From an uncultured bacterium (lineage in GTDB: Bacteria; Oederibacteriota; JAAXVQ01; JAUVAV01), in assembly GCA_963710755.1 (NCBI GenBank), contig CAVQBK010000003.1, positions 211,605 to 275,604 of the forward strand: DNA of 64,000 nucleotides. Direction: 5' to 3'. The notes under the pieces are model-generated. The model saw only the letters and a program-made list of their open reading frames with translations, searched no databases and was not told the DNA's origin. Positions within the stretch are counted from its first letter, which is position 1. Every line of letters begins with the position of its first letter. Of this stretch, positions 23,032-45,199 are shown piece by piece. The translations under genes were made by a program, and so were the position numbers.

Positions 23032-23409
23032 TCACGATCTGGCGAGACCACGTTCTAATATAGCAATCACTTCCGTATTCAGGCTGACGCCTTCCCGCTC
23101 TGCCTCCAAGGCAAGACGTTCATGCAGCGTTTTCGGAACCCGCACATTGAATTTTCCACTATATTTTTCCCGGGGCAATGGGATCGATCGTCCTCGCCTT
23201 AATTCTTCCTCCAGCCAAACCTCCTTGGCTTCGGCAATCATTTTTAACGCCTCTTCCTCCGTCTCACCTTGTGATACACAGCCGGGCAGATCAGGGATGA
23301 CCGCAACATAACCGCCGTCTTGATTATCCGGAATTAAATCCACACGGTACTTCAATTTAATATACTTTAAGAGATCGGCTTTGATATTCCTACCAGCCAT
23401 GGTTATCAT
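23032..23409 (-). CDS. hicB: HicB-family antitoxin (N-terminal HicB fold plus C-terminal RHH)
   Basis: 125 aa. C-terminal FNVRVPKTLHERLALEAEREGVSLNTEV is a ribbon-helix-helix. Overlaps the hicA stop by 4 nt. Confidence 0.75.
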   Translation of the reverse strand: MITMAGRNIKADLLKYIKLKYRVDLIPDNQDGGYVAVIPDLPGCVSQGETEEEALKMIAEAKEVWLEEELRRGRSIPLPREKYSGKFNVRVPKTLHERLALEAEREGVSLNTEVIAILERGLARS

Positions 23410-23648
23410 TCCTCTCCGCTAAGATAGCGCGCAAGCACAGTTCGCACTTGTTCCACGTAACAGCGCTTTACAGGATTATTCCTGGGCAATGTGATGGTGG
23501 TATATTTCTGATGTGAAAAAACCGTATGGCTGCCTTTGCCCTGTCTTTCCACATAGCCCAGTTTCAACAATACTTTGACAATTTCCGAGTACCTAATCTC
23601 TCTTCTCTTATCCATGACTGCAAATAAGAGTTTATCCAGCTTGGTCAT
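23406..23648 (-). CDS. hicA: HicA-family mRNA interferase toxin
   Basis: 80 aa with GKGSHTVFSH (the HicA GSHxxF motif). Confidence 0.75.
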   Translation of the reverse strand: MTKLDKLLFAVMDKRREIRYSEIVKVLLKLGYVERQGKGSHTVFSHQKYTTITLPRNNPVKRCYVEQVRTVLARYLSGEE

Positions 23649-23846
23649 GAAATGTCCTTCTTTTTATGGTACTATATTCGGTACTACATATCAATAGCTT
23701 AATAATTTAAATAGCCGCGCGCCAAAACAGGGATGCCGGCGCCAAGGTTTAAATTATTGGACCGGAAAACAGCAATTTTCTTTCGAAAAATGTTAATTTT
23801 TTCCCTTCCTCCCCGTCCCCCGTGCCTCCCTGTGAATAGTCCTTTT

Positions 23847-24164
23847 TTATCTTGTCCCGTTTTTTAATCTCTTCACTTCTTCCACCACCGCCATCTCTAT
23901 GACCGTCCGCAAGCTCCACACAATCTCATTGACCATGGTTAGATCCATCTCCTCCGGACAGGCCGCCACGGGGTTGGCCTCCATCATACATGTGTACTCC
24001 CCGGCCCAATGAAAGATAGGAATCTCCTTGAGCAGGATACGGTTGTCAATGGTCACCCGGGCTATGCCGATAATAGCGGATAAGTTCGAAGTGCTGGGGT
24101 AGATGGTGATGGAGAGATTGGGGGATTGGGGCATGGGGCGTTCCTTGTGTGGCTTATTTTCCAT
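23847..24164 (-). CDS. Small conserved hypothetical protein (copy 1 of a duplicated gene; paralog at 27828-28115)
   Basis: 105 aa. From MPQSPNL onward it is ~96% identical to the 95-aa paralog (4 aa differences). Divergently paired with an XRE-family regulator. Confidence 0.5.
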   Translation of the reverse strand: MENKPHKERPMPQSPNLSITIYPSTSNLSAIIGIARVTIDNRILLKEIPIFHWAGEYTCMMEANPVAACPEEMDLTMVNEIVWSLRTVIEMAVVEEVKRLKNGTR

Positions 24165-24252
24165 ATTATGCCAATCCTTCGGTTTAAGGTCAAGGTTTTT
24201 ATGTGGCTAACTTTCTGTTTGCTAATTTTCTGCAAGGAATTAGATTACTGCC

Positions 24253-24564
24253 ATGCCTACTAAGTCTAAAGAATCAAACATCATTCAAAAGAGCATGGGC
24301 CATGTCATTCGGACATTGCGTTTCAAGCTGAATCTTACCCAAAGTCAGCTGGCCGAAAAAGCCGGCCTGGACCGCACCTATATTGGGGATATTGAAATCG
24401 GCGGCCGCAATATCGCCCTGCGCACTTTCTTTCGCCTAGCTGCAGCCCTTGAGGTGTCGCCGGACAAGTTCATGAAATTATTGACCAAACAACTGGAAGC
24501 GGATCATAAGGGATTTGATTGGAAGAAACTCATGGAAAAAGATAAGTGGGTGGAGAGAGGGTAA
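24253..24564 (+). CDS. XRE-family (Cro/C1-type HTH) transcriptional regulator, copy 1
   Basis: 103 aa. HTH core LTQSQLAEKAGLDRTYIGDIEIG. C-terminal ~35-aa extension ends KDKWVERG, shared with copy 2 and with the fragment at 26571-26710. Confidence 0.7.
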   Translation: MPTKSKESNIIQKSMGHVIRTLRFKLNLTQSQLAEKAGLDRTYIGDIEIGGRNIALRTFFRLAAALEVSPDKFMKLLTKQLEADHKGFDWKKLMEKDKWVERG

Positions 24565-24643
24565 AGGTAGGTATCAAAATAACAGCATGTATTTCCCCTC
24601 GCCCCGTGCCAGCGGGGAGAGGTTGGGTGAGGGGCCCAGTATA
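24565..24643. repeat. Conserved 3' tail of the XRE gene with a G/C-rich imperfect hairpin (CCCCTCGCCCCG-TGCCAGC-GGGGAGAGG...GGTGAGGGG); also at 28549-28628
   Basis: Near-identical between the two XRE copies although the XRE coding regions have diverged. Confidence 0.5.
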
Positions 24644-24733
24644 CTCCTCCCCCAAAAAAGTCGAATCTCGGGTGGATGCCGTCCCTGGGCAGGAGGGGCA
24701 ATTAAGTTGTTATGTTGTTAACGTCCCGTTGAC
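24644..24733. repeat. R2 repeat (copy 2), ending ATTAAGTTGTTATGTTGTTAACGTCCCGTTGAC (MITE-like terminus)
   Basis: Aligns with 22936-23026. The last ~35 bp match the right end of the MITE family. Confidence 0.55.
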
Positions 24734-24772: not shown

Positions 24773-26269
24773 ATGAAAAAGTTAACTTATAGCCTGCTCT
24801 TATGTGGGCTTATATTGGATGGTTCCGTTCACGCTGAACTCGTCGAAAGAGGAACGCTCTCCGGCATCGTAACCACCTTTGACTCGGACAACGCAGGCGT
24901 TCTGTACCGAAACAGTGCCTCTGAGTATTGGCACCTAACTCGAGGCGGCGACGCCAAAAAACTTATCGCCAATTCACATTCTGAACGTGTGACATCGGTG
25001 TCACCTCAGCGCACTTACGCCCTTCTCCGCGGAATGGAAGGCATTCACATTGTGAAACTCAAAACCGGAGAAAAAATCCCCATAAAATTTAAGTTGAATT
25101 TTTCTCATCATGCTACCTGGCTTTTGGATGAAAGTAAATTCGCCTTTGTATCACGAAACAAGAAAGAAAGTGAACGCCCGGTTCTTTCTAATTTTACTGA
25201 AAATCTCTATCTTTTTAATGTTATTGAGTATGTCAAGGATTACAAGAATCGGTCACTCGCGGATATCGGTAATTATACAACAAAACTTACAACGTATACC
25301 AAAGGCTTTTGGATAGACAATCTCGCCTGGGCTACCGATCAGAAGAGACTTGCCTTTGGAACCTACCATCCGGAGAAAGTGAACAATCAATCTAAGTATT
25401 TTCATACGATAGAAGTTGTTGATATCTCCAGTGAAATGATTTCTACTGTAGCCAAGATGCCCAGCGATGGAATCTATTGGACCGGAAAGGATTCGCTGGC
25501 GTTTTTCGGCTATACCAAAGCAGGTGGTTGGACGCTCTACGCCAAAGAAGGCCAAGGGCCTGTAAAGCAACTCGTTCAGGGACGACCACACCATTGGGCT
25601 TTTTCCGAACAAGAGCGGAGTTATTTATACGACATGCCGCCTCACTCATCAAATCCGGGAAACGAACACTTTTGGAAGAATTTGGATAATAAAAGCATGA
25701 CCAGGATAGTAGGTGCTCTAAGGAATCCGATGTTATCCAAGGACGGAAAGTGGCTCTCATTCCAAGTCCCTGATACACTGGACAAAGCCATGGCCATCTT
25801 GGTTGAAACAAAACTCATCTCAGAGCGTGCCGTTAATGGGACAGTCAAGGTTGAGGACCTCATCCAAATACGTATGGGAGAAAGGCCATCAGTTTATGAC
25901 GTGAAGTCGTCACCCCTCCCTCAGCCATCGGTCACTTTTCGTTTGAATGATGTACAGGCCAATCAGGAATTCATCTCGTATGAGCTACATCTAAAGAATG
26001 AATTCAATGACAGGTACTTGCGTTTTAAATTTGTAAACCAACAGCAGATTGCCGGCAAAATTACAGACGCAACTGGCAATGAAGTCCTATCATGGCCGAG
26101 GATCGTTCAACCTGCCGTTTCAGCTTTCCTCGTGGGGCCGCATGAAACCAAGGTGTTCAGCGGACGTACCTCTTCCTCGTTGAAACCGGGTCAGACCTAT
26201 ACCGTCGCCTTTGAACTGATAGGATACCAAAACATTCCGACAGTCCAAACACAATTTACAGTCGACTAG
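24773..26269 (+). CDS. Secreted hypothetical protein (signal peptide; 498 aa), lower-GC
   Basis: N-terminal MKKLTYSLLLCGLILDGSVHA signal. No recognisable catalytic motif. Composition differs from the core genome. Confidence 0.5.
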   Translation: MKKLTYSLLLCGLILDGSVHAELVERGTLSGIVTTFDSDNAGVLYRNSASEYWHLTRGGDAKKLIANSHSERVTSVSPQRTYALLRGMEGIHIVKLKTGEKIPIKFKLNFSHHATWLLDESKFAFVSRNKKESERPVLSNFTENLYLFNVIEYVKDYKNRSLADIGNYTTKLTTYTKGFWIDNLAWATDQKRLAFGTYHPEKVNNQSKYFHTIEVVDISSEMISTVAKMPSDGIYWTGKDSLAFFGYTKAGGWTLYAKEGQGPVKQLVQGRPHHWAFSEQERSYLYDMPPHSSNPGNEHFWKNLDNKSMTRIVGALRNPMLSKDGKWLSFQVPDTLDKAMAILVETKLISERAVNGTVKVEDLIQIRMGERPSVYDVKSSPLPQPSVTFRLNDVQANQEFISYELHLKNEFNDRYLRFKFVNQQQIAGKITDATGNEVLSWPRIVQPAVSAFLVGPHETKVFSGRTSSSLKPGQTYTVAFELIGYQNIPTVQTQFTVD

Positions 26270-26350
26270 TTCCTGCTGGGCATATGTGGATATGGGACGA
26301 ACCTAACTAATGATTCCTGAGAAGTAAGTACCTTTTTTGAAGTCGAATAA

Positions 26351-26569
26351 GTTCTAGGGGACGTTAACAACATAACAACTTAATAGACAGTTCCAAATAA
26401 ATGCAGTTATAATTACACCATGCCACGACAAAAACGACTGAATTTACCAGGGTAACAGACATTTAAGTGAGCGCCAAAGAACAAGCGGTATCGAAATGGT
26501 TCGAAAAAGGAAGGGAGATTTGTGAACGAAAAAATATAAAGTTGTTAAGTTGTTAACGTCCCGTAGAAC
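26351..26569. mobile_element. MITE-like non-autonomous element, copy A (~219 bp, 21-bp TIRs GTTCTAGGGGACGTTAACAAC / GTTGTTAACGTCCCGTAGAAC)
   Basis: Near-identical copies at 37354-37572 and 38987-39204 in the opposite orientation. Terminal inverted repeats seen directly. No coding capacity. Confidence 0.7.
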
Positions 26570-26570
26570 A

Positions 26571-26710
26571 CTTTCTTTCGCCTAGCTGCAGCCCTTGAGG
26601 TGTCGCCGGACAAGTTCATGAAATTATTGGCCAAACAACTGGAAGCGGATCATAAGGGATTTGATTGGAAGAAACTCATGGAAAAAGATAAGTGGGTGGA
26701 GCGGGGTTGA
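26571..26710 (+). pseudogene. 3' fragment of an XRE-family regulator gene (third, truncated copy)
   Basis: Matches 24427-24564 of XRE copy 1 with a few substitutions. Starts 2 bp after the right TIR of MITE copy A, so the 5' part and the partner gene are missing. Confidence 0.65.
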
Positions 26711-26734: not shown

Positions 26735-27637
26735 TCAAACAAAATATCCGTCTTTCTTTAAAAACCGCTCATGTTTTTTCCTGTTACAATAAGGTGCATA
26801 AATTATTCCATCCCACTTCCATATTTTTTGATCATTAAATATAATGTCTATATTCATAGTTGTGTTTAATATTTTCTCCCACAGGTTTTTATAGGGATTA
26901 ATGCACAACGAAGATTGAAAGCAATCTTTTGCAGTACAAGTATTGTTAGCCGTATATTCATCAAAAGACTTCGAAACGATCCCCCCGATTATATCTATTA
27001 TTTTGATCGCTCTAGCTTCATCTGAATATTTTTCTGATTTTTTGGGAATAAAATAAGGGCCGCCCAGTATTACTTTTTTTTCTCGCGCCAAATCATGAAT
27101 CTGTACCTTGATTTTATCCTGATACTTACGGTCATTAATATCAATGAACCAATCCACTTTGGGGTTATTGAACAAATATGATCCTGGCTGATGGAAATTA
27201 AGTTTTTTTACAAAAGGAAATATTCTTTTAAATCCATATAAATAACCATTTTGTGCATGCCCGGCTATTATTGCTTTGTCTGTCAATTTTTGTCCGCATT
27301 CTACTTCTGATTTATTTAGAATATAAAAACCTAGAAGGCAAATATAGTCTCTGTTATTTCCCGATAAAAGCTCCGTAACAAAACCCTCAAGGGCACAAGG
27401 ATCGTCTTTAGCGACTTTCTTTAACTCAGACCATTTTCGCAAACGGGATTTAAGATATTTTCTTGAGCAGGAGCGGGCGATTTCAATGAATTTCTTCATC
27501 GATTCTTCGCCGGGAAAGCACGCCATTGAAATGATGTAATTTCTTGTGGCTCCAGAATAGGTTGTTCCCAAACATCCTGATTCATCGGAGATAACGATGA
27601 GTCGCAACTTTTTACCCCAAAAAAATAGCCCCGTCAT
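26735..27637 (-). CDS. DUF3800-family protein (AT-rich, 300 aa)
   Basis: N-terminal LRLIVISDESGCLG fits the DUF3800 hhYhDESG start. Strongly AT-rich compared with surrounding DNA. Confidence 0.45.
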   Translation of the reverse strand: MTGLFFWGKKLRLIVISDESGCLGTTYSGATRNYIISMACFPGEESMKKFIEIARSCSRKYLKSRLRKWSELKKVAKDDPCALEGFVTELLSGNNRDYICLLGFYILNKSEVECGQKLTDKAIIAGHAQNGYLYGFKRIFPFVKKLNFHQPGSYLFNNPKVDWFIDINDRKYQDKIKVQIHDLAREKKVILGGPYFIPKKSEKYSDEARAIKIIDIIGGIVSKSFDEYTANNTCTAKDCFQSSLCINPYKNLWEKILNTTMNIDIIFNDQKIWKWDGIIYAPYCNRKKHERFLKKDGYFV

Positions 27638-27827
27638 ACCCTCTCAAAGAGAGGTGAGTTCTCGACAAGGGCGAGAACCGACGGGGCTAATATAGGACAC
27701 CAATAATTTCTAAATAGAGTATATCTCAGCTTTTTATTGCCTACAAGTATAATTTTAAAGTTTTTATGATCCCCTTAAATTATCGGCATAATATTGCTGA
27801 TCCTAAATTTAATATGCCTATTCCCTT

Positions 27828-28115
27828 TTATCTTGTCCCGTTTTTTAATCTCTTCACTTCTTCCACCACCGCCATCTCTATGACCGCCCGCAAGCTCCAC
27901 ACAATCTCATTGACCATGGTTAGATCCATCTTCTCCGGGCAGGCCGCCACGGGCTTGGCCTCCATCATACATGTGTACTCTCCGGCCCAATGAAAGATAG
28001 GAATCTCCTTGAGCAGGATACGGTTGTCAATGGTCACCCGGGCTATGCCGATAATAGCGGATAAGTTCGAAGTGCTGGGGTAGATGGTGATGGAGAGATT
28101 GGGGGAGTGGGGCAT
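27828..28115 (-). CDS. Small conserved hypothetical protein (copy 2; paralog of 23847-24164)
   Basis: 95 aa. Nucleotide identity to copy 1 runs from ~27826 through the start codon (6 substitutions). Confidence 0.5.
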   Translation of the reverse strand: MPHSPNLSITIYPSTSNLSAIIGIARVTIDNRILLKEIPIFHWAGEYTCMMEAKPVAACPEKMDLTMVNEIVWSLRAVIEMAVVEEVKRLKNGTR

Positions 28116-28236
28116 AAAAATCTTCCTTTTGTTACTAATTTGCTACCAAGAGTATATCCAATTCATAAAAGGAGATCAAGCCAATTGTACATAACTTGCC
28201 ATTTACTTATTTTCTACAAACCTCTAATGTTGCCCT

Positions 28237-28548
28237 ATGCCTTCAAAATCTAAAGAGAAAAATATAATCCAAGTTACCTTAGGTCATATTATAAGGGACT
28301 TACGCTACAAGCTTCACCTTACTCAAGAACAGTTGGCCGAACGGGCTAGTGTAAACCGTTCCTATATTGCTGATCTTGAATTAGGCGGACGCAACATGGC
28401 CTTTCGCAATATTCTACGGCTATCCGTCGCCCTGGAAATCACGCCAGATAAATTATTCAAATTGCTTCTCAAACGACTTGAAACAGATCAAAAAGGATTT
28501 GATTTGAAGAAGTTTATGGAAAAAGATAAGTGGGTGGAGAGAGGGTAA
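28237..28548 (+). CDS. XRE-family HTH transcriptional regulator, copy 2 (diverged)
   Basis: 103 aa, ~60% identical to copy 1 over the HTH but with an identical last 11 codons and identical downstream tail. Confidence 0.7.
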   Translation: MPSKSKEKNIIQVTLGHIIRDLRYKLHLTQEQLAERASVNRSYIADLELGGRNMAFRNILRLSVALEITPDKLFKLLLKRLETDQKGFDLKKFMEKDKWVERG

Positions 28549-28628
28549 AGGTAGGTATCAAAATAACAGCATGTATTTCCCCTCGCCCCGTGCCAGCGGG
28601 GAGAGGTTGGGTGAGGGGCCCACTACAC

Positions 28629-29028: not shown

Positions 29029-32000
29029 TTAGGAGGCCAACCGAACTTCGCGAAATGCCTCGCTAAGCTGAAGCGCTGCACTTCGCCTGTCGCCCATGTC
29101 GACTAGAATGTCGAGAATCCGCAGGAACTTCTGAGCAAGAGCCATTTTCATGGGCGTATCACGATGTGCGAAGTACTGAACAAGCTCCGCAATACGTGCC
29201 GGAATGAACGTTCCATGCCAACCCTTTAGGTTGTCGGGTCCGTTATTAATAATCGAGAGCACTTGGTCCGCGAAGGCTTCTGTTGGATAGTTTGCCCTTG
29301 CTCGTTCACAGAGCGTCAAAAATGGGGCCATCACAGAAGCGGCCCATCCGCTGGCGCGAACGAATCGATTGATCAGGGGTAGGATACGGTCAATTTCTGA
29401 CCAGTCACCATTGACGTAGCGAGCAGCTAAGTCCGCGCCTTCGACGGAGACAAACATTAAAGTGCGAACAAGATCAGGCTGATCGAAACCTGTGAGTTCA
29501 CCACTCCGGTAAGTGTCGCGTTTGAAAACGGAATCCTGTAAAAGACGTTCAAGACACAGGTTCAGCATCACGATTGCATCGGCTGGAACGACCGGCGCAT
29601 CGTACACATAGGCGCAGACATAAGTACTCGCGAAGGGGGAAAGGAGAGCCCAGCAATTGTCGCCTTTGAGGTTCAGAATCGGGTCGAGGAAGCGGGTTTG
29701 AAAGTCGGCAAGCGGGATAAAACCAGCCACCTGGCCCAGCCGCGATCCAAGCGTATGCGTCCACTCGAAAATCTGGGTTGATGATTTATTTCGGCGTCCA
29801 GGCTTCACCCATGCTGGCTCATTCTTTTGATTGGTCCAGTCGAGAACACCAGCGAGGAAATCGAGAAGTGAGTTCATTGCGCTACTTTGCAGAACCTTAT
29901 CAAAGGGGATGTGCTTAAGAATTTTTGCTGCCTGCTTGGAATGCCAAATAACGTTTGGTTCACCCCATGCCTCAGCTGCGTCGGTAGCATCATCAGCATC
30001 GATATCTTCATAGCTTTGATGCCCACGTCGGCTCTTTCCTTGTTCGACTTTCACCCAGGCTGGAGGCGGTAACGGAAGGGAAGCCCATCCGCTTCCATTC
30101 TCGTAGAACTCAAGCGCCGCATCGATCGCCGCTTGCGCTTCACTCATCGAATGGAGTGCTTCATTGTGTTGACGGGCCTGGCTGCGCGGCCGTAGTGGGA
30201 CGTGACAGAGCGAAAATGCTAAGACCAGCGCCGCCCAAGTCAATCTGGGATCCTTGGACCAAAGCTTACACGATTCTTCAAGCGCGGCTAATGAAACAAT
30301 CTCCAATGGGTGCGCAATCAGCCCAAGAAGGTCGCGAATCGCACCGCGTTCCGCTGTACTTTCGCGGATATCCGCTGCGATGCCGCGCGCCACGTAGATC
30401 GCCTGATGCCATGGGATAATGGAACTGGGAGACTGCATCAAATCGGGCTTTTCTGGCAGAAGGATAGCACGTTTTAATACATCACGAGCCCACTTGAGAT
30501 CTTCTTGACTACACCCTTTTCGAAATGTGAGCGCGATGGCAGCGGTGGCGGCAACTGCACCTCGACGTATACCCAACTGCACTTCTTCGTTCTCATCTTT
30601 CGGTTGTTTGAATAAATCGTTGGCGTCAGCTTCTCTGGCCATTGCAATGGCATCTTGAATATCGTAACTGTCGTTGAGTCCCTTCTTTTCAAATGACTTG
30701 CACGCCCACGTCCACAAGCTGGTCAGATTAAGATATTTAGTTGCCTCTTCGACCCTGGCGATATTTTCAGGTTCAGCATCGGAAGGACTAACGTGGACAA
30801 TTGTTAGCTGGTCTGAATCCTTTTCCGTGCGGTAGGCCTGATAGTTGTGCGGGTCTGTAAACTCGGCATATTTAATGGCTTGTTCCATGAGGTGTTTCCT
30901 TACCTCTGGAATATTGCGCTGCTCCTCGTACTGAAAAGGCAAATTATTCTTGAAATCGAGAATCGCATTGCGGGTTTGGTTACGGATCGGTCCTGTCGCA
31001 AAAACAAACATAGGCACCATCCAACTAAGCTGCTTTTTGCGAACCGGCCTGGCATTTGCTGCTTGGATCGCATCAACGTGAGGTTTATCGGTGCGAGATG
31101 TAAAACCTATTAGATTAGTAGTCGGAGCAATATCTTGCTCCCATCGATGTTGGTCGGCAGCTAGCAAACGTTGTGAGATGAAGAGTGGCAATGTCGTTTC
31201 GGACACAGTTTCGGTATTGAGCGCAAGCATTGCCGCAATGCCTAGGATGGCGATGCATTCGTTTCCCTCTATGATTTGCTGGATTATCTCATCAACGGGC
31301 CGACCACGCTCAAGCTCGGTGAAGCACCATTCTTCGAGTGCCATAAACCCGCAGCCGATGGCATTGGGCGCCCATGTAGAACGAAACCAAAGATACTCCC
31401 GGTCAGTACCCCAGAATTTCTGGGTACCCCAGGGAAACCTCAGTTCAAGCGGTATAGGTGTGCCGGGGGGATTTTCATGATATCGTGAATAACAATGTAG
31501 TTGTCGCCACGCGGTCATCGCGTGATTGCATAGTTCCCGAAGGAGTCTCAAAGCCTCGGCGGGTGAAAACTTAAAAAGTGAGTAAAAGGGCTCTCGAAGC
31601 GGTGAAGGAGGCAAGAAACTTTGATGGTCATCGTGGATCGATAGCCTTTCACAGTCGTGGAAACTAAAATCACCTATGGCTCGCAGAGAATGTCCGAACG
31701 AAAGTGACATTTGTTCTTGGCGCGTGCGCTCAGCTTTCGGCTTGGCAAGGACTGTTTTGCGCCACTCGGCCGCACGATGAAGTTCCTGTCTTTCGCGGGC
31801 GACTTGCTCGTCTGGTAGTTCCTCTCGCAGGAACGCCAATGAAAGTTCGACGACCGACTGAGGGAGTGATTGGGCGAGGACAGGTGAGTAGACGATGATG
31901 TCGTGAAAAGCGTCGTCACGGATACGCTCTGAGTTGGCCACCCGCTGCAAGTAGTCGGCGGCAAAGATCGGCTCAGATCTCGACGATTTTAAGAGGAGTT

Positions 32001-34365
32001 GAGAGAGGGATTTTTGAAAGCCACCGGGGTCGGGCATGGTGGCGAGCCAGGTGGCGCATTGCTGCAGCAGAGCGCGAGACGTTGGATTGGGCAAATCTGC
32101 AAGTGCATTTTGCCAGACCTCGAAGATAGCGACGATCTCCGGATAGAGCCTCTGCGGTATATCCGAAATGCGTCTGAGGATAAAGTTGATGAGGCGACGC
32201 CACGCGGCGAAGTCGGAAGGCCAACCGAGAAGATCAGCGAATCGTTGGCGTTGATCCGGTGGAAGCGCACCAGCGAGGATGTTCGCATTCGGAGTGGTCT
32301 TTTCAGCTTGAAACCAGACAAGCACCTTTCTGAAAAGCCGGAAGTCGTCGGCAAAGATGGCCGTCGCAAACTGGTCCTCATCAGCTTCGAACTTCGCAGT
32401 TCCGAGGGGACCGACTAGCCAAGCACGCAGCCATTGTGATCTAAGGTCCGAACCCTCGGTTTTGGCGAGGTAGGCGCACCATTCTTTTCCCTGTGTGTAC
32501 TCCCATTGGGAAGAGAGTTCGACGACGCGCGCGACCGCTGGCGGCTCCCCGGAAGCCTTAATCTCTTCCATCCATTGGGCCCCGCGATCAGCCAAGACAT
32601 AGAAAAAGGCCCATTCGAAGAAGATATCGTGGGCGAAGCGGACGGATATCCCTTCACGAGCATTTTGGAGTATGCCATCTGATCTTAGGTCATCGATGTG
32701 TGCGACTGAAGTGAGCTGGCTAAGGCAAATCGGCTGGCTAAGATTGCGAGCACGAACAGAAGCTAAATTGAGCAGCGCTCGCTGGCGTTCAATTGCGTCT
32801 TGTCCATTCTCATTATAACCGCCCCGCTGCCACCAATTCTCGATCAAATCTACTTCAGATTGAGGAGCGAATGTCGGGGCGCCGGGGTCGGCTACGTAAC
32901 TTTGGTTTAGCACTTTCGCAAAAAAGGGTCGTCGGACAATCTCTTTCACCTGGGGTAATCCAAACAGAAGTGGTCTCAGGTGTGGTTTGGCTTTTGCGAG
33001 TAGCTCAGCCTCTTCGTCGCTCAGCTGATCAACGCTAAGCGTCTCGACATTCAGGACATCAAGGAACTCGCCTAACCAATTGCGAAGAACTTCAATACCG
33101 GTGTTGCGAAGGGAGACGACGGTTCGCCAGTTGTCAAGCAGCGGTGACTCCACAATGGTGCGGATTACGTCGAGAATGATGGGCTGATGCTCCTTCTCAA
33201 TACGATCGATTGCATCGATGAACAAAATGGAAGTGCCAGATGCTCCGATCTCAACGAGAAGTTGCTCCAAGGGAGCACCAGAGAGACCCTGCGAAGTCGC
33301 ATAACTGATCCAACTGGTGCCTTCGAGCTGTTCGGCTTTGAGGAAGAAAACTGGCCCGCGTACTAGCGCGCGCTCTACCGCTCGCCTCACTACGACTGAT
33401 TTGCCACTTCCCGGCAGGCCGCGAACCTGGACAACACGGGCTGTAGTTAGCTTGGCGTCCAGGTCTCCTAGGAGCGAGGCTCGGTCGAGCTTTGATCCGC
33501 CAACATCGTCAGGAATGAGGTTTGTGTAACTCTTTGTGAGTTCCGTTAATCTGTCGAGATCAAGACGCAAGGAGGTCGCGCCGCGAAAGCGTACCACAGG
33601 GGAGATCATGCGCACAAGCCGCGCGCGGTCAAACTGGCCCGATTTGCCTGCTGAAGCGCGGGCTAACTGAACGATCTTTGACCAAACGAAGGGTGCCTTG
33701 GCTGCGTCATCGGGCACGAGGCAATCTCCGATGCGATTAATTGCATCCGGGGGATCAGTGGCGCCTTCACGAAGGAAATCGAATTGGATCAGAACGAAGT
33801 GCGCAAGGAACCGATGCACTTCTTCATTTGTGCACGGCGCCCCCTTTGCATCTTCCATCAGAGCAACTACGTTGTTCTTGACTGTTTTGAGCTCAGCACT
33901 AGCGCCGCCATCCTTCGCAAAGCGAGCGTTAAAATGATCCGCGGTCAGACTTTCACGGGCCCAATCGCAAAGGGTTTTAAGCGCTCGTTCTTTGGCGGGG
34001 GTAACCGTGCCAACTGCTGACCCGTAGCGGTCGACGTTGATGCGGAAGTCAGCTTTTTTGAGGGTAGCCCAACTGTTGCGGATAATGTCGCGAAAGTCGG
34101 TGTTAGTTTCCGCCTTGCTTATTGTGAGCGAACGCTTCACCTGGAGGCTAAGGCGAGCGGGTTTCTTTGCTGCATCTTCAAAATCAACAATCACATCATC
34201 GAGCGGTTCGCCGAAGTCGCGCTGTTGAACCGACACGCGAACAACGGTTCGATCATCAATGCCGGGTGCATATGCTTCGGCTAGAAGCGCGGTGAGATAG
34301 AACGCGGCCGCGTCACCCTCAAAGGTAAAACCTTCACCGCCGGCGAGTTCAGTTGATTGTGGCAT
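29029..34365 (-). CDS. Giant STAND-type P-loop NTPase with N-terminal Cap4-like (DUF4297) nuclease-like domain and ~1350-aa helical C-terminal region; putative Avs/bNACHT-like antiviral sensor-effector (1778 aa)
   Basis: N-terminus GGEGFTFEGDAAAFYLTALL...DDVIVDFED...LSLQVKRS fits the DUF4297 GGxGFxFQ start plus a D...(D/E)xK-like core. Walker A VRGLPGSGKSVV at aa ~306-313 and Walker B ILFIDAIDRIE at aa ~369-379. The long C-terminal region has no other catalytic motif. Confidence 0.6.
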   Translation of the reverse strand: MPQSTELAGGEGFTFEGDAAAFYLTALLAEAYAPGIDDRTVVRVSVQQRDFGEPLDDVIVDFEDAAKKPARLSLQVKRSLTISKAETNTDFRDIIRNSWATLKKADFRINVDRYGSAVGTVTPAKERALKTLCDWARESLTADHFNARFAKDGGASAELKTVKNNVVALMEDAKGAPCTNEEVHRFLAHFVLIQFDFLREGATDPPDAINRIGDCLVPDDAAKAPFVWSKIVQLARASAGKSGQFDRARLVRMISPVVRFRGATSLRLDLDRLTELTKSYTNLIPDDVGGSKLDRASLLGDLDAKLTTARVVQVRGLPGSGKSVVVRRAVERALVRGPVFFLKAEQLEGTSWISYATSQGLSGAPLEQLLVEIGASGTSILFIDAIDRIEKEHQPIILDVIRTIVESPLLDNWRTVVSLRNTGIEVLRNWLGEFLDVLNVETLSVDQLSDEEAELLAKAKPHLRPLLFGLPQVKEIVRRPFFAKVLNQSYVADPGAPTFAPQSEVDLIENWWQRGGYNENGQDAIERQRALLNLASVRARNLSQPICLSQLTSVAHIDDLRSDGILQNAREGISVRFAHDIFFEWAFFYVLADRGAQWMEEIKASGEPPAVARVVELSSQWEYTQGKEWCAYLAKTEGSDLRSQWLRAWLVGPLGTAKFEADEDQFATAIFADDFRLFRKVLVWFQAEKTTPNANILAGALPPDQRQRFADLLGWPSDFAAWRRLINFILRRISDIPQRLYPEIVAIFEVWQNALADLPNPTSRALLQQCATWLATMPDPGGFQKSLSQLLLKSSRSEPIFAADYLQRVANSERIRDDAFHDIIVYSPVLAQSLPQSVVELSLAFLREELPDEQVARERQELHRAAEWRKTVLAKPKAERTRQEQMSLSFGHSLRAIGDFSFHDCERLSIHDDHQSFLPPSPLREPFYSLFKFSPAEALRLLRELCNHAMTAWRQLHCYSRYHENPPGTPIPLELRFPWGTQKFWGTDREYLWFRSTWAPNAIGCGFMALEEWCFTELERGRPVDEIIQQIIEGNECIAILGIAAMLALNTETVSETTLPLFISQRLLAADQHRWEQDIAPTTNLIGFTSRTDKPHVDAIQAANARPVRKKQLSWMVPMFVFATGPIRNQTRNAILDFKNNLPFQYEEQRNIPEVRKHLMEQAIKYAEFTDPHNYQAYRTEKDSDQLTIVHVSPSDAEPENIARVEEATKYLNLTSLWTWACKSFEKKGLNDSYDIQDAIAMAREADANDLFKQPKDENEEVQLGIRRGAVAATAAIALTFRKGCSQEDLKWARDVLKRAILLPEKPDLMQSPSSIIPWHQAIYVARGIAADIRESTAERGAIRDLLGLIAHPLEIVSLAALEESCKLWSKDPRLTWAALVLAFSLCHVPLRPRSQARQHNEALHSMSEAQAAIDAALEFYENGSGWASLPLPPPAWVKVEQGKSRRGHQSYEDIDADDATDAAEAWGEPNVIWHSKQAAKILKHIPFDKVLQSSAMNSLLDFLAGVLDWTNQKNEPAWVKPGRRNKSSTQIFEWTHTLGSRLGQVAGFIPLADFQTRFLDPILNLKGDNCWALLSPFASTYVCAYVYDAPVVPADAIVMLNLCLERLLQDSVFKRDTYRSGELTGFDQPDLVRTLMFVSVEGADLAARYVNGDWSEIDRILPLINRFVRASGWAASVMAPFLTLCERARANYPTEAFADQVLSIINNGPDNLKGWHGTFIPARIAELVQYFAHRDTPMKMALAQKFLRILDILVDMGDRRSAALQLSEAFREVRLAS

Positions 34366-34980: not shown

Positions 34981-35256
34981 TTAGTGGGAAGAGATGAAAC
35001 CAGGGCGTCGGCGCGGCAGTGTGGAATTCCGGTGCCAGCCGCCATCGCCTTTGGTTGGTCGCAGAAGTAAATGCACATGATTGCTCATCAGCGCCCAGCC
35101 ATAGCACTGGCAAGTGGTTTTTTCTAGAGCAAATGATAATCGTTCCAGAAATTCTCGTCGATCACGATCATCTTTGAATAGTGCCATCCCATTTAAACCG
35201 CGCGTGATGATGTGATAGATTGCACCTGGTATGCTTAATCGTTTTTGTCTGGCCAT
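34981..35256 (-). pseudogene. Truncated/frameshifted IS200-like Y1 transposase (RAYT-like; HuH motif HVHLLL present)
   Basis: MARQKRLSIPGAIYHIITRG...WALMSNHVHLLLRP, then the frame degenerates. A continuation ORF lies in another frame (34782-35078). Confidence 0.55.
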
Positions 35257-37077: not shown

Positions 37078-37353
37078 TGATTTCCTTCCAATATTCTTAA
37101 TGTATTAGAATTGCTCTGCTAATTTCTGCATATTGCCTATAACGTTCCTGGCACATACGATGTTGCGTCTGACACTTGAAGTTACATTATCCTTTTAGCT
37201 TTTTTAAAGCAACAAATTTTTTGACCTAAATCAAGCAAGCAATATGGCGTAGCCCAAGCGACCGCAGGGCGCGCAGCGTTATGTGCCGTGTTGAACTAAA
37301 CCTTCGGTAATAAAATTATTGCGTAGATTCATTGACTACCTATCATGATATGT

Positions 37354-37572
37354 GTTCTACGGGACGTTAACAACTTAACAACTTTATATTTTTTCGTTCA
37401 CAAATCTCCCTTCCTTTTTCGAACCATTTCGATACCGCTTGTTCTTTGGCGCTCACTTAAATGTCTGTCACCCTGGTAAATTCAGTCGTTTTTGTCGTGG
37501 CATGGTGTAATTATAACTGCATTTATTTGGAACTGTCTATTAAGTTGTTATGTTGTTAACGTCCCCTAGAAC
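37354..37572. mobile_element. MITE-like element, copy B (inverted relative to copy A)
   Basis: Reverse complement of copy A with TIRs GTTCTACGGGACGTTAACAAC / GTTGTTAACGTCCCCTAGAAC. Confidence 0.7.
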
Positions 37573-37726
37573 TAACGTTCTATTCCCAGACTTTTTCTTT
37601 TTTCATTTCACTTTTTTACAAAAAAAGGACATGCCTATAGTTTCAAGTTAGACATGTCCCCTAATCTTATCCAAAATAAAAACCCACCCGACTAGCTTTA
37701 GGTGGGTTAATTAAAATGCTCTATTA

Positions 37727-38092
37727 TTAACTCTGAAAATAATGTTTATATTTTTTCGGCAACGCTTTTGATTTCGCGCCACCTTTTTTAATCTTTGAAA
37801 CTAATTTTTCAGAGGCATCTGGTTTCCTAATATGGCTTTTATTTGCTGACCAAGCTAAAATATCAGATAGTAATTCTTCTTTTACTCGAATATAATTCAC
37901 AAAGGATTTCTTTTTTACAAACGGATGTTCACCCGGTTCAATTATACAAGAACGGTCACATGGCCTATCTTCGCGTACTGTCGAAAGACTCACAAGTAAA
38001 CAATGTGTCTCGTTATTACAAACAACGAAAAACAGATGATGGGAAGAAGGACTGTCAGTAGGGATTAAAAAAGCAGCACCAATTAATGACAT
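37727..38092 (-). CDS. Hypothetical protein, candidate toxin partner of the Panacea-domain antitoxin (121 aa)
   Basis: Overlaps the upstream Panacea gene by 10 nt in an AT-rich context. Ends Lys-rich. No family recognised. Confidence 0.35.
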   Translation of the reverse strand: MSLIGAAFLIPTDSPSSHHLFFVVCNNETHCLLVSLSTVREDRPCDRSCIIEPGEHPFVKKKSFVNYIRVKEELLSDILAWSANKSHIRKPDASEKLVSKIKKGGAKSKALPKKYKHYFQS

Positions 38093-38640
38093 TCCAAAAA
38101 TTGCTTTGCTTTATTAAAGCGGTGAATGTCCTTTTCAATTTCTTTTATAACTTGTGTGGATTTCCCAACGGCTCTAAAAATATCTTCGATTTCAATGGGT
38201 TTTGATGAACCTTCGGGGTCTTGCCACTCTTTTAAATACCTATGACAGTATTTTTCAATTTGCCACTGATTAAAATGCCTAAACTTGTGTGAAACTTTTT
38301 CTATTAGCTCTATCTCTCTTTCGCTTAACTCTCCATCCTCACATTCATTATGAGCGGAAACGTTATAATTATTCCGCACTATATGTTTATGCCAATAGGA
38401 GTCTTCCCCTGGTTTTGGTTTATAATTAATAGTATCCAATATTTCACTTACAACTGGACCATGAGGCAATGAAAAATACCTGTCACAAGTAATAGGTGCT
38501 TCCCATTTTTTCAAAGCTTCCCTGTCTGCAATATATAGAAGCTTGATTAGCTTCATATAGTTAATACGCCCACCTTCTTTTTTAATAAAATGGCAGGCTG
38601 CTTGTGTTGCTTTTTTAATATCAAACTCGAATTGGATCAT
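38083..38640 (-). CDS. Panacea-domain (DUF4065, SocA-like) putative antitoxin
   Basis: N-terminal MKLIKLLYIADREALKKWEAPITCDRYFSLPHGPVVSEI matches the Panacea core (KLxKLLYxADRE...GxPxxx..Y.A...GPV). Confidence 0.6.
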   Translation of the reverse strand: MIQFEFDIKKATQAACHFIKKEGGRINYMKLIKLLYIADREALKKWEAPITCDRYFSLPHGPVVSEILDTINYKPKPGEDSYWHKHIVRNNYNVSAHNECEDGELSEREIELIEKVSHKFRHFNQWQIEKYCHRYLKEWQDPEGSSKPIEIEDIFRAVGKSTQVIKEIEKDIHRFNKAKQFLECH

Positions 38641-38986
38641 TTTAACCGCCCCTTATTTACCCGAATTCGGCCCAATTTCTAGTGAATTCGCCTACACTTT
38701 CATAATAGTTTCGTCTCAATAGTTGATATTGTTTAGACCCTGATTTGACTTTAAATACCGCTTAAGCGGTATTTAACTATATAGAAGTATAGCATACGCC
38801 CCGATATAAACACAACATATTGTCCAGCTCACCCAAGTTGCCTAAAGCCATTTGTCGTATCCAACCAGTATTAAACCCTTATAAATCAACGGTTTTCCCT
38901 CATCCAGAGTGCGCCTTCTCGACGCTATCCATCATGTCATCCTTTTTTGAATTCTCGCCCCTGAAGGTTCTGCACTGTAATGTTGG

Positions 38987-39204
38987 TTCTAGGGGACGTT
39001 AACAACTTAACAACTTTATATTTTTCCGTTCACAAATCTCCCTTCCTTTTTCGAACCATTTCGATACCGCTTGTTCTTTGGCGCTCACTTAAATGTCTGT
39101 CACCCTGGTAAATTCAGTCGTTTTTGTCGTGGCATGGCGTAATTATAACTGCATTTATTTGGAACTGTCTATTAAGTTGTTATGTTGTTAACGTCCCCTA
39201 GAAC
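38987..39204. mobile_element. MITE-like element, copy C (same orientation as copy B)
   Basis: Near-identical to copy B. TIRs GTTCTAGGGGACGTTAACAAC / GTTGTTAACGTCCCCTAGAAC. Confidence 0.7.
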
Positions 39205-39687: not shown

Positions 39688-41058
39688 TTACCGATCCCCC
39701 TGGACCGCCTCTTCATTCAGCAGGCCTTCAATATTCTCAACAACTAAAAAATTCAGCTCTTTGCCTCGTTTACGCTCCTCTAAAAACCCTTTCTTGGCCA
39801 GATCCAACAAATCCGACCGGGCCGTGCCCCAGGAGATGGCATTTGAATTTTGATAGTTTTTAATGGTATAGGCAAAGTCCTTATGGTTGATGGCATGATT
39901 TAACAGATCGATCTGCCGATAGTTTAAATCCTCTCTTCTTTTTATCCTGGTTCTGAGCCGATGATAGTTAACCACTTTCTTTTCAACATAGGCTTCCAGC
40001 GCTTCGATACTTTTTCGAATAATACTTAGATGATAATAAATAAAATAATTTAAATCTCCGCCGTCGCATTCGGTATTTAAATAAGCCCTTTTATATTGGC
40101 CTTTGGATTGATTGATCATTTCCGAAATGGAAACATATTCAAATAATTTATACTGCTTGCTAATCAGGTACCAATAAAACAATCCCCGGGCCGTCCGGCC
40201 GTTGCCGTCGGTAAAGGGATGGATATAACCGATCATAAAGTGGAGGATAATGGCTTTTATAACCGGGTGAACGAACTCCTGGTCGTCATTGGCAAAGTCA
40301 CATAAGGCCTGGATTCTCTGCTCCACTTCTGCATAAGGGGGCGGTATAAACAAGACTTCCTGGTCCGCATCATGTACATTAACCTGTTCTTTTCTAAAAG
40401 AACCTTCTTCCTCAGGATTTTCCAACAACCCGGCAGTTAAATCTTGATGTATTTTTTTAATTAATTCCGGGGAGAGCTTTTGGGTTTTATACTGCTTGGT
40501 TATTTTAATAATCGCACTATAGTTATTGATGATCATTTTTTCATCCTGCGTTTTTGGTTTCTTGCCGGCCTTGATCATTTCCTTGGCTTGTTTGCGCGTG
40601 GTGGCCGCGCCTTCTATTTGGGATGAAGTGATGGCTTCTTCCATCAACGCGTGTATGATTCTTTGTTTCAGCCATTCTTCCTTGTGGTCTTCTTCGCCGG
40701 CATTTTGAAAAACCATATTATCCGAAAGATGGATATCGACATAGTGGATCTCTTTTAAGATGCTGTTGGTTAATTTATAGGAAAAGGGGCTATTTTTAAT
40801 ATCCACCAAGCCCTTGGTTTCCAGACTCTGCGAACGTAAAAAAATTTTCATATAAAGCCATAAGGTTAAATGATCATAACTGCTTTCCGGTAAGGGACTA
40901 TTAGAGAACTTGTTCCAGGTCCAGTACTCTTCATAGGCTTGATTAAGAAAAATGCTTAGTTCTTTTTTCGCGTGAAGCTGTTTATGAATCGTCAATAACG
41001 TCATCATTAAATCATCATTGAGCTTTTCCACTATATTGGGAAAGTATGGTTTTTGCAC
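39688..41058 (-). CDS. Fic-family protein (class II, with inhibitory SxxxEG helix), 456 aa
   Basis: Fic motif HPFTDGNGRTAR. Inhibitory motif SSQIEG lies N-terminal to the core. GTG start. AT-rich. Confidence 0.8.
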   Translation of the reverse strand: MQKPYFPNIVEKLNDDLMMTLLTIHKQLHAKKELSIFLNQAYEEYWTWNKFSNSPLPESSYDHLTLWLYMKIFLRSQSLETKGLVDIKNSPFSYKLTNSILKEIHYVDIHLSDNMVFQNAGEEDHKEEWLKQRIIHALMEEAITSSQIEGAATTRKQAKEMIKAGKKPKTQDEKMIINNYSAIIKITKQYKTQKLSPELIKKIHQDLTAGLLENPEEEGSFRKEQVNVHDADQEVLFIPPPYAEVEQRIQALCDFANDDQEFVHPVIKAIILHFMIGYIHPFTDGNGRTARGLFYWYLISKQYKLFEYVSISEMINQSKGQYKRAYLNTECDGGDLNYFIYYHLSIIRKSIEALEAYVEKKVVNYHRLRTRIKRREDLNYRQIDLLNHAINHKDFAYTIKNYQNSNAISWGTARSDLLDLAKKGFLEERKRGKELNFLVVENIEGLLNEEAVQGDR

Positions 41059-41396: not shown

Positions 41397-42554
41397 TCAC
41401 TCTACGCCTTCATTCAACAGCCCTATATACGCACTGTAGGCATATATCCTACCCCGCTGTTTACCGCTGATTTCTTTGACGATCCCCAAACGCTCAAGCT
41501 GATTAAAGGCCGACACAATGGTGGGGGTGGTCAGGCCTGTCAGCTTTTTCATTTTTTTAATCGATAAAATGAGATGTTGCTCCATTTCACGGTGGAGGCG
41601 GAGGGCCGTGGTGGCACCTCTGCCGGTCTGCTGCAGGGCTTGCCGGTCTTGATTAACCAAAGCCATTAGTCTCTTGGCTGTATCCACGGCATTGCCCGCT
41701 GTTTCAATGAGGCCATCGGCAAAGAAGTCGAGCCAACTTTCCCAGTCTCCTTCAAGGCGCACCTGCTCCAGCAACTTGTAATACATCTCTTTATGTTTTT
41801 TAAAGTAAAGACTCATATACAGCATGGGCTGGGATAGTATTTTTTCTGTATATAATAATAATGTAATCAGCAACCTGCCGATACGGCCGTTGCCATCCAA
41901 AAAGGGATGGATCGTTTCAAACTGCACATGGGCCAGCGCCACTTTGATTAAAGCCGGTGTTCTGGTTTCCGCATTATGCAGGTACTTTTCAAAAGCATCA
42001 AGACACTCCATTAATAATTCCGGCGGTGGGGGCACAAAGCCGGCATTGCCCGGTCTGGTGCCGCCCACCCAATTTTGACTTTTTCTGAATTCTCCGGGAT
42101 TTTTACCGGCCCCCCTTCCCTGGGATAACAGCACTTGGTGTATTTCCCGGATAAGACGCAATGACAGAGGAAACCCTTCTTCCATCCGTTTTAACCCATG
42201 ATTGAGTGCAGCGACATATTGAGAAACTTCCTCCACATCATCGATTGGTACCCCGGGCATGGCTTCCGATTCATAAATGAGCAAATCTGAAAGGGACGAT
42301 TGCGTGCCTTCGATCCTGGAGGACATCACCGCCTCTTTACGGATATAAGCATATATAAAATAGGTAATATCGGGCAACAAGATCGCCGCACTGTCGAGCC
42401 GTCCTAAGCTGATTAAAGCCTGATCCAGTTTCAGACGTAAACCATCGTCAATAGCCAATTTCTTAAAATCCGGTATGGGATAGGGGACAAAGGCCTTGAC
42501 CTGTTCATCATAAACAGTTGTTGTAATATATCGTCCTGTTACCTCTTTAGTCAT
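41397..42554 (-). CDS. Fic-family protein (class II), 385 aa
   Basis: Fic motif HPFLDGNGRIGR and inhibitory motif SSRIEG. Confidence 0.8.
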   Translation of the reverse strand: MTKEVTGRYITTTVYDEQVKAFVPYPIPDFKKLAIDDGLRLKLDQALISLGRLDSAAILLPDITYFIYAYIRKEAVMSSRIEGTQSSLSDLLIYESEAMPGVPIDDVEEVSQYVAALNHGLKRMEEGFPLSLRLIREIHQVLLSQGRGAGKNPGEFRKSQNWVGGTRPGNAGFVPPPPELLMECLDAFEKYLHNAETRTPALIKVALAHVQFETIHPFLDGNGRIGRLLITLLLYTEKILSQPMLYMSLYFKKHKEMYYKLLEQVRLEGDWESWLDFFADGLIETAGNAVDTAKRLMALVNQDRQALQQTGRGATTALRLHREMEQHLILSIKKMKKLTGLTTPTIVSAFNQLERLGIVKEISGKQRGRIYAYSAYIGLLNEGVE

Positions 42555-44562: not shown

Positions 44563-44928
44563 CTATTTCGAAGGAAGTAGTCTGGCCATTTGGCTGACCA
44601 ATTCAGGCACATGCTGCTTGGCTACTCTCCACAAAAGTTCATCTTCGATTTCTCCGTATTCGTGGGCAATGACATTTCTTTGAGCAATAATCTTTCCCCA
44701 TGGAATTTGAGGATTATTTTTTTGAAAGGACTTTGATACTTTATTGGCAGCTTCACCAATAATTTCAATATTTCTTTCTATCGCATTTCGAAGTTTTCTA
44801 TCTGAAGCATAATCATGATAGGTCTGATCAGCTATGAATTCCATAACCGCTTTCCCTGCATCCAGCATATCCCACAGGTAGGCCAGATCCCTCTCTTCAG
44901 GCTGCATAAATAACCTCTCGATTATCAA
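44563..44928 (-). CDS. hepT: HepT-like HEPN-domain toxin (DUF86)
   Basis: 121 aa. RNVIAHEY is the Rx4HxY HEPN motif. Overlaps the mntA-like gene by 32 nt. Confidence 0.75.
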   Translation of the reverse strand: MIIERLFMQPEERDLAYLWDMLDAGKAVMEFIADQTYHDYASDRKLRNAIERNIEIIGEAANKVSKSFQKNNPQIPWGKIIAQRNVIAHEYGEIEDELLWRVAKQHVPELVSQMARLLPSK

Positions 44929-45199
44929 GGATGGCTTGCCTGCGATAAGGATTCCTTATTCCTTTCTTGGATACCAGGTCGACTTTTTTCAAAAACAAGG
45001 CCTCCAGCTCATGCTGCATATCAATCCAATCGTATAGACTCCAGCCGGAATTATTGAGAAACTCCACCAGCACATCAACATCGCTGTTGGAGGTAAAATC
45101 GTCACGAAGAACAGAACCAAAAAATGAAAGTTCCGCTATCTTCCATTTTTGGCAAAAATCTCTTATTTTTTGGTGATCAATACTGATGTGAGGACTCAT
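44897..45199 (-). CDS. mntA: MntA-like minimal nucleotidyltransferase antitoxin
   Basis: 100 aa. GSVLRDDFTSNSDVDVLVEF is the GSx10DxD NTase motif. Confidence 0.75.
   Translation of the reverse strand: MSPHISIDHQKIRDFCQKWKIAELSFFGSVLRDDFTSNSDVDVLVEFLNNSGWSLYDWIDMQHELEALFLKKVDLVSKKGIRNPYRRQAILDNREVIYAA

Follow-up and report, generated by a model that had tools for sequence, protein, structure and literature searches.

A probable Avs4-related antiviral receptor with a Cap4-like nuclease domain in an uncultured Oederibacteriota bacterium

We analysed a 64,000-nucleotide stretch of contig CAVQBK010000003.1 (positions 211,605 to 275,604 of the forward strand; assembly GCA_963710755.1) from an uncultured bacterium (GTDB lineage Bacteria; Oederibacteriota; JAAXVQ01; JAUVAV01). 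In this stretch, hereafter the window, a gene at 29029..34365 on the minus strand encodes a protein of 1778 aa. By homology, the gene most likely specifies a stand-alone Avs pattern-recognition receptor of an Avs4-related clade, with a Cap4-type DNA endonuclease as its effector. This reading is built on an intact open reading frame (ORF), recognizable domains and folds, conserved motifs, homology to Avs4, a single-gene organization and neighbourhoods that hold defence genes. A preliminary description, made from the DNA letters alone, had proposed an Avs-type antiviral sensor-effector with a Cap4-like nuclease, and the domains, the motifs and the homology to Avs4 support that proposal. The architecture and every domain type are already known, and the protein represents an uncharacterised Avs4-related clade, not a new kind of system.

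The gene was confirmed as a single uninterrupted ORF of 1778 codons with an ATG start and a stop codon at 29029-29031, as had been described. The N-terminus of the protein, MPQSTELAGGEGF, agreed with the N-termini of its homologues, indicating that the start codon is well placed. When the gene was compared with 11 homologous loci, the ratio of nonsynonymous to synonymous substitution rates (dN/dS) was 0.12-0.15 overall and 0.09-0.17 in each of five sub-regions, the sensor included; in three further homologous loci the synonymous sites were saturated. The low ratio across the length indicates that the ORF is a real, intact gene under purifying selection over its whole length. When all ORFs of the window and of 18 homologous loci were clustered, no conserved neighbour emerged, only spurious ORFs overlapping the gene; a multi-gene system was therefore rejected, and the system consists of a single gene. 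Scans for promoters and terminators found sites no more frequent than in shuffled sequence.

The central part of the protein (aa 291-600; 32566..33495, on the minus strand like every part described below) is a STAND NTPase with nucleotide-binding, helical and winged-helix domains, identified by NCBIfam, PADLOC, weak Pfam matches and hhalign. NCBIfam matched one family, Avs4, over aa 292-590 only, with 97.4 bits against a cut-off of 1500. The Avs4 model of PADLOC matched aa 292-587 (E 1e-19; profile positions 192-461 of 1570), and its candidate model PDC-M54A weakly matched aa 9-587 (E 2.8e-10; profile positions 17-605 of 1621). A Pfam search of the whole protein gave only sub-threshold P-loop matches within aa 308-447 (AAA_16, 21.9 bits against a cut-off of 32.6; NACHT, 15.6 bits against 26.7). 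The preliminary description had likened the architecture to both Avs and bNACHT proteins; the likeness to Avs stands, Avs4 being the closer relative, and membership in bNACHT was rejected on the NACHT score.

Motif conservation was examined in 72 family members, whose sensors were as little as 26-30% identical. In the Walker A motif GLPGSGKS (aa 316-323; 33397..33420), G319, G321 and K322 were conserved in 100% of the members, G316 in 98% and S323 in 95%. In the Walker B motif ILFIDAIDR (aa 380-388; 33202..33228), D384 and D387 were 100% conserved, as was the downstream R420. The winged-helix domain carries the MHD-like His-Asp motif F-A-H-D-I-F-F-E-W (aa 577-585; 32611..32637), in which F577, H579, D580 and W585 were 100% conserved and which aligned with 'THDIYEEW' of EcAvs4 in both the profile search of the Protein Data Bank (PDB) and the hhalign comparison described below. 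The MHD-type winged-helix motif of STAND and NOD-like receptor (NLR) proteins contacts ADP in the resting state, and we infer that the H579-D580 motif is of this type, with a role in ADP binding. The conserved motifs and the homology to the EcAvs4 NTPase bear out the P-loop STAND-type NTPase proposed earlier; its Walker A lysine, given as K312, is K322 (G316-L-P-G-S-G-K322-S323), ten residues further on.

The preliminary description had considered the sensor unrecognisable. A Pfam search of aa 601-1778 found no domain at all, DNA-binding domains included, even at E<=10, and phmmer of the single protein sequence against the PDB gave a chance match only, so that family profiles were needed for the PDB search. 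A profile built from 30 full-length members of the family had EcAvs4 as its sole match among the whole set of PDB sequences (8dgf, the title of which is Avs4 bound to the phage PhiV-1 portal; E 2.1e-7), in three collinear stretches that paired residues 291-365 with 208-282, 554-753 with 446-648 and 926-1321 with 771-1176. The EcAvs4 sequence from an E. coli plasmid (WP_001572194.1, annotated Avs4) was then aligned by hhalign to a 26-sequence family alignment, which gave a probability of 98.5% and an E of 3.9e-15 over 934 columns at 17% identity, with family positions 275-1330 aligned to EcAvs4 183-1178. An AlphaFold2 model of aa 601-1778 was almost entirely helical, with a predicted local distance difference test score (pLDDT) of 63 and a predicted template modelling score (pTM) of 0.50; the distal sensor was the best-modelled part, the last ~560 residues being mostly at pLDDT 75-94. 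Foldseek of this model against the PDB again placed 8dgf first (E 3.9e-8; TM-scores 0.36-0.41), followed by importin-like and HEAT solenoids at E ~1e-4. SeAvs3 (8dgc) and SeAvs7 (9n00) were not among the 50 and 60 structural matches of the sensor listed, nor were they found in the profile search. Four methods, comprising profile, profile-profile and structure searches, converge on EcAvs4 as the best match of the sensor, which is thus recognisable in part. These results suggest that the NTPase and the proximal sensor of this clade descend from the same stock as Avs4.

The sensor accordingly falls into two parts: a proximal alpha-helical part (aa 601 to ~1300; 30466..32565), homologous to the EcAvs4 sensor, and a distal alpha-helical module with an invariant C-terminus (aa ~1301-1778; 29032..30465), which hhalign left unaligned to EcAvs4. 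Near the C-terminus, L1748, D1752, G1758 and R1761 did not vary among 26 members with identities as low as 29%. Since the similarity to EcAvs4 stops at ~aa 1300, the last ~480 aa may alter the specificity of the receptor. An NTPase grouping with non-defence families and a C-terminal DNA-binding domain had been named beforehand as signs that would speak against an Avs protein; the NTPase groups with Avs4, and Pfam detects no domain in aa 601-1778.

The N-terminal domain (aa 1-290; 33496..34365) is a Cap4-like, PD-(D/E)xK-type nuclease effector domain by its fold and PADLOC profile matches. Its best fold matches were Acinetobacter Cap4 (6vm6; score 13.8), SeAvs3 (8dgc; 13.6), Enterobacter Cap4 (7yib; 12.4), Hachiman anti-bacteriophage protein A, or HamA (8zue; 11.8), and Lamassu LmuA (9ux8; 10.8), and NucS, Can2, Card1 and many restriction endonucleases (various structures) matched with scores of 5-7. 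The predicted order of elements (helix 12-28, strands 40-46, 58-63 and 69-80, helix 89-102, strand 113-121) is that of a PD-(D/E)xK core. The putative active site (aa 56-77; 34135..34200) consists of D56-D57 at the start of the second strand and, 18 residues on, Q75-V-K77 inside the third strand. In the 72 members, D56, D57, Q75 and K77 were 100% conserved and E16 was 93% conserved. The residue stretches that had been singled out as intact, DDVIVDFED (aa 56-64) and LQVKRS (aa 74-79), are present and contain these four invariant residues, and PD-(D/E)xK-type residues, the lack of which had been named as one sign against the proposal, are in place. HerA-DUF4297 has an experimentally tested triad, D41/E59/K61, described as resembling that of Cap4 (10.1101/2024.10.24.620088), and the spacing of 18 residues between D57 and Q75 equals that between D41 and E59.

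Pfam found no match in aa 1-287, DUF4297 and Cap4 included, even at E<=10. The Cap4-like nuclease domain of the preliminary description therefore holds as a fold, and its DUF4297 label is not a Pfam result; the Cap4 assignment rests on fold and PADLOC profile matches. PADLOC matched aa 2-269 to DUF626_VIII (E 2e-26; positions 2-249 of 474 only), a model that stands for the type VIII retron effector of Mestre et al. 2020 (PMC7736814), and the N-terminal family profile weakly matched apo SeAvs7 (9n00; E 3.8e-4) at the end of the Cap4 domain and the P-loop. On plasmids of Azospirillum, Agrobacterium and Shewanella, six matches (H20, H22-H26), annotated 'hypothetical protein' or lying in an unannotated record, covered only the Cap4-like N-terminal region (aa 1-257 or shorter; 25-37% identity). 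These N-terminal-only matches and the match to the retron type VIII effector model suggest that the Cap4-like domain is a shuffled module used in other architectures.

Homologues of the 1778-aa protein numbered >700. A HMMER scan with the sensor returned 978 representatives of 50% identity clusters at E<=1e-3 and 309 at E<=1e-30. Full-length representatives were ~1690-1940 aa, with the sensor starting near residue 600 in most, and the Cap4, NTPase and sensor parts were kept together in 71 of 73. The two outliers carried other N-terminal domains, which were trypsin-like in P0399 (Pfam Trypsin_2, 8e-8) and had no Pfam match in P0313; effector swapping has been described for Avs7 by Lee et al. 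2026 (PMC13581612). Around the window protein lies a close-knit subfamily, with 74-81% identity over the full length to the 119 nearest representatives of 90% clusters. The genome loci of the core subfamily were 67-81% identical across Chrysiogenota, Acidobacteriota, Chlorobiota (a Chlorobiaceae locus), Desulfobacterota and Alpha-, Beta- and Gammaproteobacteria. Loci and named homologues came from Desulfurispirillum, Desulfobulbus, Nitrosomonas, Halomonas/Vreelandella, Kiloniellaceae, Chlorobiaceae, Acidobacteriota, Burkholderia and Pseudomonas; those of Desulfovibrio and Microbulbifer were more distant, at 57-61%. Among close homologues, aa 901-1340 were the most variable (69-76% identity), compared with 79-87% in the nuclease and NTPase regions. 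Full-length relatives of 34-39% identity were found on plasmids of Polaromonas, Rhizobium, Shinella and Pseudomonas. The GC content of the gene was often unlike that of its flanks (0.53 versus 0.37 in locus L004 and 0.49 versus 0.37 in locus L006), and the proportion of differing synonymous sites (pS) within the subfamily was 0.44-0.63, indicating that the spread was horizontal but not very recent. To judge from these sequence comparisons, the core subfamily gives evidence of one conserved receptor design spread widely, over six bacterial phyla, by horizontal transfer. In public databases the homologues are annotated only as 'ATP-binding protein', 'hypothetical protein' or, in two entries, 'NACHT domain-containing protein', and a few relatives carry precomputed NACHT matches.

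Set against the Avs class, the protein combines a STAND P-loop NTPase, in which the Walker A, Walker B and winged-helix His motifs are 95-100% conserved, with a fused N-terminal effector of a defence-associated type and a sensor of ~1180 aa made almost entirely of helices, where the class has a repeat-like sensor of at least 400 aa; it is associated with defence and mobile genes in the window and in the flanks of its homologues, plasmids included. Like EcAvs4 of AVAST type 4 (8dgf), it is a single-gene STAND receptor, with a homologous, collinear NTPase and ~700 aa of sensor and a common xHD-I-(F/Y)-x-E-W motif. It differs from EcAvs4 in having a ~290-aa Cap4-like effector in place of the unaligned EcAvs4 residues 1-182, in the unaligned distal ~480 aa of its sensor and in being ~190 aa longer, and its 97.4 bits lie far below the full-length 1500-bit cut-off of the curated Avs4 model (NCBIfam NF041815, an equivalog; PADLOC PDLC02169). 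Portal sensing belongs to EcAvs4 and would extend to the window protein by sensor homology only. With SeAvs3 (8dgc) and SeAvs7 (9n00/9n01/9yix), the protein has only the Cap4 domain and the P-loop in common, their family-specific sensors being absent among the matches listed and from the profile search, and their triggers, the terminase large subunit and the major capsid protein, need not apply to it.

Other systems that use related nucleases resemble the protein in part only. CBASS Cap4 (6vm6, 7yib) has the nuclease fold in common with the window protein, which contains no SAVED or other nucleotide-sensing domain; no cyclase gene occurs among the annotated ORFs of the 22-46 kb island, and CBASS Cap4 membership was rejected on these two grounds. 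Compared with the nucleases of Cap4, HamA, LmuA and HerA-DUF4297, the window protein has Q for E at the middle position and no Pfam match, and its activation would come from the fused STAND NTPase and sensor. The type VIII retron effector corresponds to the N-terminal domain, but only the N-terminal half of its profile was matched, and beyond that domain the protein is built as a STAND receptor. Pfam detected no reverse-transcriptase domain among the 20 ORFs of the 22-46 kb island, and membership was rejected in view of the partial match (2-249 of 474), the missing reverse transcriptase and the absence of a conserved neighbour. The PADLOC candidate PDC-M54A has a similar effector-plus-NTPase front end, yet the match is weak and leaves the sensor part of its profile unmatched, and the two belong to different families. 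The catalogue of Lee et al. 2026 comprises 589 STAND clades and 684 sensor clusters (PMC13581612), and the window-protein family is probably already among these clusters. It is probably not Avs11, since Avs11, which also senses portal, has according to Lee et al. 2026 no sequence or structural similarity to Avs4 (PMC13581612).

We derived every step of a mechanism for the window protein by homology to SeAvs3, EcAvs4 and SeAvs7. Gao et al. in 2022 reportedly described the same Cap4-bearing receptor mechanism for SeAvs3. SeAvs3 and EcAvs4, like SeAvs7, form tetramers. SeAvs7 and SeAvs3 provide the mechanistic precedents for Cap4 nucleases: SeAvs7 assembles into a tetramer, and inactivation of its Cap4 nuclease eliminated both defence and toxicity (PMC13581612). 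In an uninfected cell, the window protein would be an ADP-bound, autoinhibited monomer, its NTPase kept closed and its nuclease sequestered by the H579-D580 motif and the sensor. Upon infection, the ~1180-aa helical sensor would wrap around a newly made conserved phage protein, for which the portal is the best single guess. Binding would open the NTPase, ATP would replace ADP (K322, D384/D387), and the protein would oligomerise, as a tetramer if it follows SeAvs7. The oligomer would join the Cap4-like domains into an active nuclease (D57, Q75, K77), which would degrade double-stranded DNA indiscriminately and stop phage replication at the cost of the cell.

Several findings weigh against this account of the protein. 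The similarity to EcAvs4 is remote, at 17% sequence identity, and stops at ~aa 1300; the score of 97 bits stands against the 1500-bit cut-off of the curated Avs4 model; the sensor model is moderately confident (pLDDT 63, pTM 0.50), with low TM-scores of 0.36-0.41 to 8dgf; and Q takes the place of the canonical D/E at the middle catalytic position, so that nuclease activity is a deduction from conservation and from relatives. In addition, the window copy carries an in-frame deletion of ~16-19 aa after aa 777 (32034..32035) that almost no homologue has, and a search of phage genomes for homologues found none. As the trigger we tentatively name the phage portal protein, at somewhat less than an even chance, because the homologous EcAvs4 sensor binds portal; there is room for other triggers, since the similarity is remote, the distal module is additional and Avs11 is a second, unrelated portal-sensing family. 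An Avs-type receptor whose divergent sensor and distal ~480 aa recognise another conserved phage protein or infection cue is about an even bet. The 17% identity and the end of the hhalign alignment at ~aa 1300 fit such a receptor, as does the fact that aa 901-1340, homologous to the EcAvs4 sensor, are the most variable part (69-76% versus 79-87%); moreover, according to Lee et al. 2026 the phage target differs between Avs sensor families, and portal sensing occurs also in Avs11, which lacks similarity to Avs4 (PMC13581612). Against it, four methods singled out portal-binding EcAvs4 as the best match of the sensor, with ~700 aa of sensor aligned. It is possible, though rather doubtful, that the protein represents a separate Avs clade, as yet without a name, which branched from the Avs4 lineage and took up a Cap4 effector together with a new ~480-aa distal sensor module with an invariant tail, the module giving a non-portal trigger or a two-part recognition or autoinhibition unseen in EcAvs4.

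The remaining alternatives concern the effector, the copy and the defence role itself. It is improbable that the Cap4-like domain is inactive as a nuclease and serves only in DNA binding or oligomerisation, with killing or signalling by another route. The motif D...QxK in place of D...(D/E)xK, the E59 of HerA-DUF4297 at the corresponding position and the absence of a Pfam Cap4/DUF4297 match would agree with a lost activity, but Q75 is invariant together with D56, D57 and K77 in the 72 members, the pattern of an active site and not of a decayed one, and this invariance argues for a functional site; no other effector-like domain is detectable, and SeAvs7 lost defence and toxicity when its Cap4 was inactivated (PMC13581612). 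Slightly less improbable is a decaying or inactive window copy of a functional family, disabled by the deletion after aa 777. The missing 16-19 residues are carried by 118 of the 119 close homologues, and the gene lies among miniature inverted-repeat transposable elements (MITEs) and insertion sequence (IS) fragments; however, the 5.3-kb frame is unbroken, no invariant motif is missing, the deletion falls between predicted helices in a low-confidence part of the AlphaFold2 model, and one homologue, P0043, has the same gap. Very improbable is a STAND protein with no part in defence, such as a regulator like MalT or a signalling ATPase of the housekeeping kind, that only happens to lie in a mobile island. 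In the tree of Lee et al. (PMC13581612), STAND clades linked to defence are mixed with clades that are not, and the homologue annotations say no more than 'ATP-binding', 'hypothetical' or, twice, 'NACHT domain-containing'. Yet aa 601-1778 contain no Pfam domain, DNA-binding or other, the nuclease effector is of a type that occurs in CBASS, Avs3/7, Hachiman and Lamassu, the closest relative is Avs4, and the family shows a patchy cross-phylum distribution, foreign GC content and defence genes in its flanks. The Avs4-related receptor with a Cap4-type nuclease remains the favoured reading.

The gene lies inside a low-GC stretch of ~24 kb (~22-46 kb), in which most 2-kb windows have a GC content of 0.39-0.47 compared with ~0.50-0.60 outside; the GC content of the gene itself is 0.53. 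Pfam identified a HicA/HicB toxin-antitoxin module (23032-23648), a SocA/Panacea-domain antitoxin with an upstream 121-aa ORF (38083-38640) and a HepT/MntA (nucleotidyltransferase) module (44563-45199). Three paralogous Fic-domain proteins lie in a row on the minus strand (39688-41058, 41397-42554 and 43053-44147; PADLOC SoFic, 2e-51, 2e-116 and 3e-119), and their genes are interspersed with 242-nt and 44-nt repeats. Two XRE regulators are also near the gene. The ORF at 26735-27637 (minus strand, 300 aa) matched nothing in Pfam (E<=1) or PADLOC (E<=0.001), and its earlier identification as DUF3800 was not borne out; of the setting described beforehand, the toxin-antitoxin modules, the three Fic genes and MITE-like repeats were recovered. 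A 498-aa ORF with a signal-peptide-like N-terminus (24773-26269, plus strand) likewise had no Pfam (E<=1) or PADLOC (E<=0.001) match. The flanks of homologues gave matches to CBASS E1-E2/JAB, PARIS AriA and mad3/mad8 and contained IS91 and integrase genes. No tRNA that could mark an integration site is present in the window. Judged by gene content, the context fits a defence island or a mobile element.

A repeat search found a MITE of ~210-220 nt at 26350-26571, 37352-37573 and 38986-39204, with a solo end near 24706-24728. Its terminal inverted repeats, GGGGACGTTAACAAC(A/T)TAACAAC, had seven matches in the window versus 0 expected, and two 100%-identical inverted copies bracket a 10.8-kb segment that holds the Avs gene. 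The MITE interior starts with a remnant, MPRQKRLNLPG, resembling the N-terminus of a nearby IS200-type transposase fragment. A 91-aa ORF at 34981-35256 on the minus strand matches part of the Pfam model Y1_Tnp for IS200-like Y1 transposases (positions 5-59 of 121; 5e-5) and is probably a truncated transposase gene just upstream of the Avs gene. A two-gene module, in which a 95-105-aa ORF of unknown function is followed, in divergent orientation, by the gene of a 103-aa XRE-type helix-turn-helix protein, is duplicated at 23845-24567 and 27826-28551; nucleotide identity between the copies is 98% and 70%. The second copy lies just downstream of the Avs gene and is not conserved in other loci; its XRE protein (28237-28548) matches the PADLOC 'Control_protein' models (4e-15).

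With ~980 representatives at 50% identity, the family enlarges the known set of NLR-like antiviral receptors by a large group that has been transferred widely, and detectable homology links it to the structurally solved Avs4. D57, Q75, K77, K322, D384/D387 and H579 are candidate residues for mutation. Should the protein behave as predicted, it would be one more example of a well-described mechanism; should it represent a distinct clade, the unusual uniformity of its core subfamily would mean that a single receptor design serves against phages of very different hosts. The high conservation across phyla may point to a viral target that is itself highly conserved. The clade lends itself to comparisons of how an Avs4-type sensor diverges, and if the trigger is not the portal, or if the C-terminal module is regulatory, it would illustrate the evolution of specificity among pattern-recognition receptors of bacteria.

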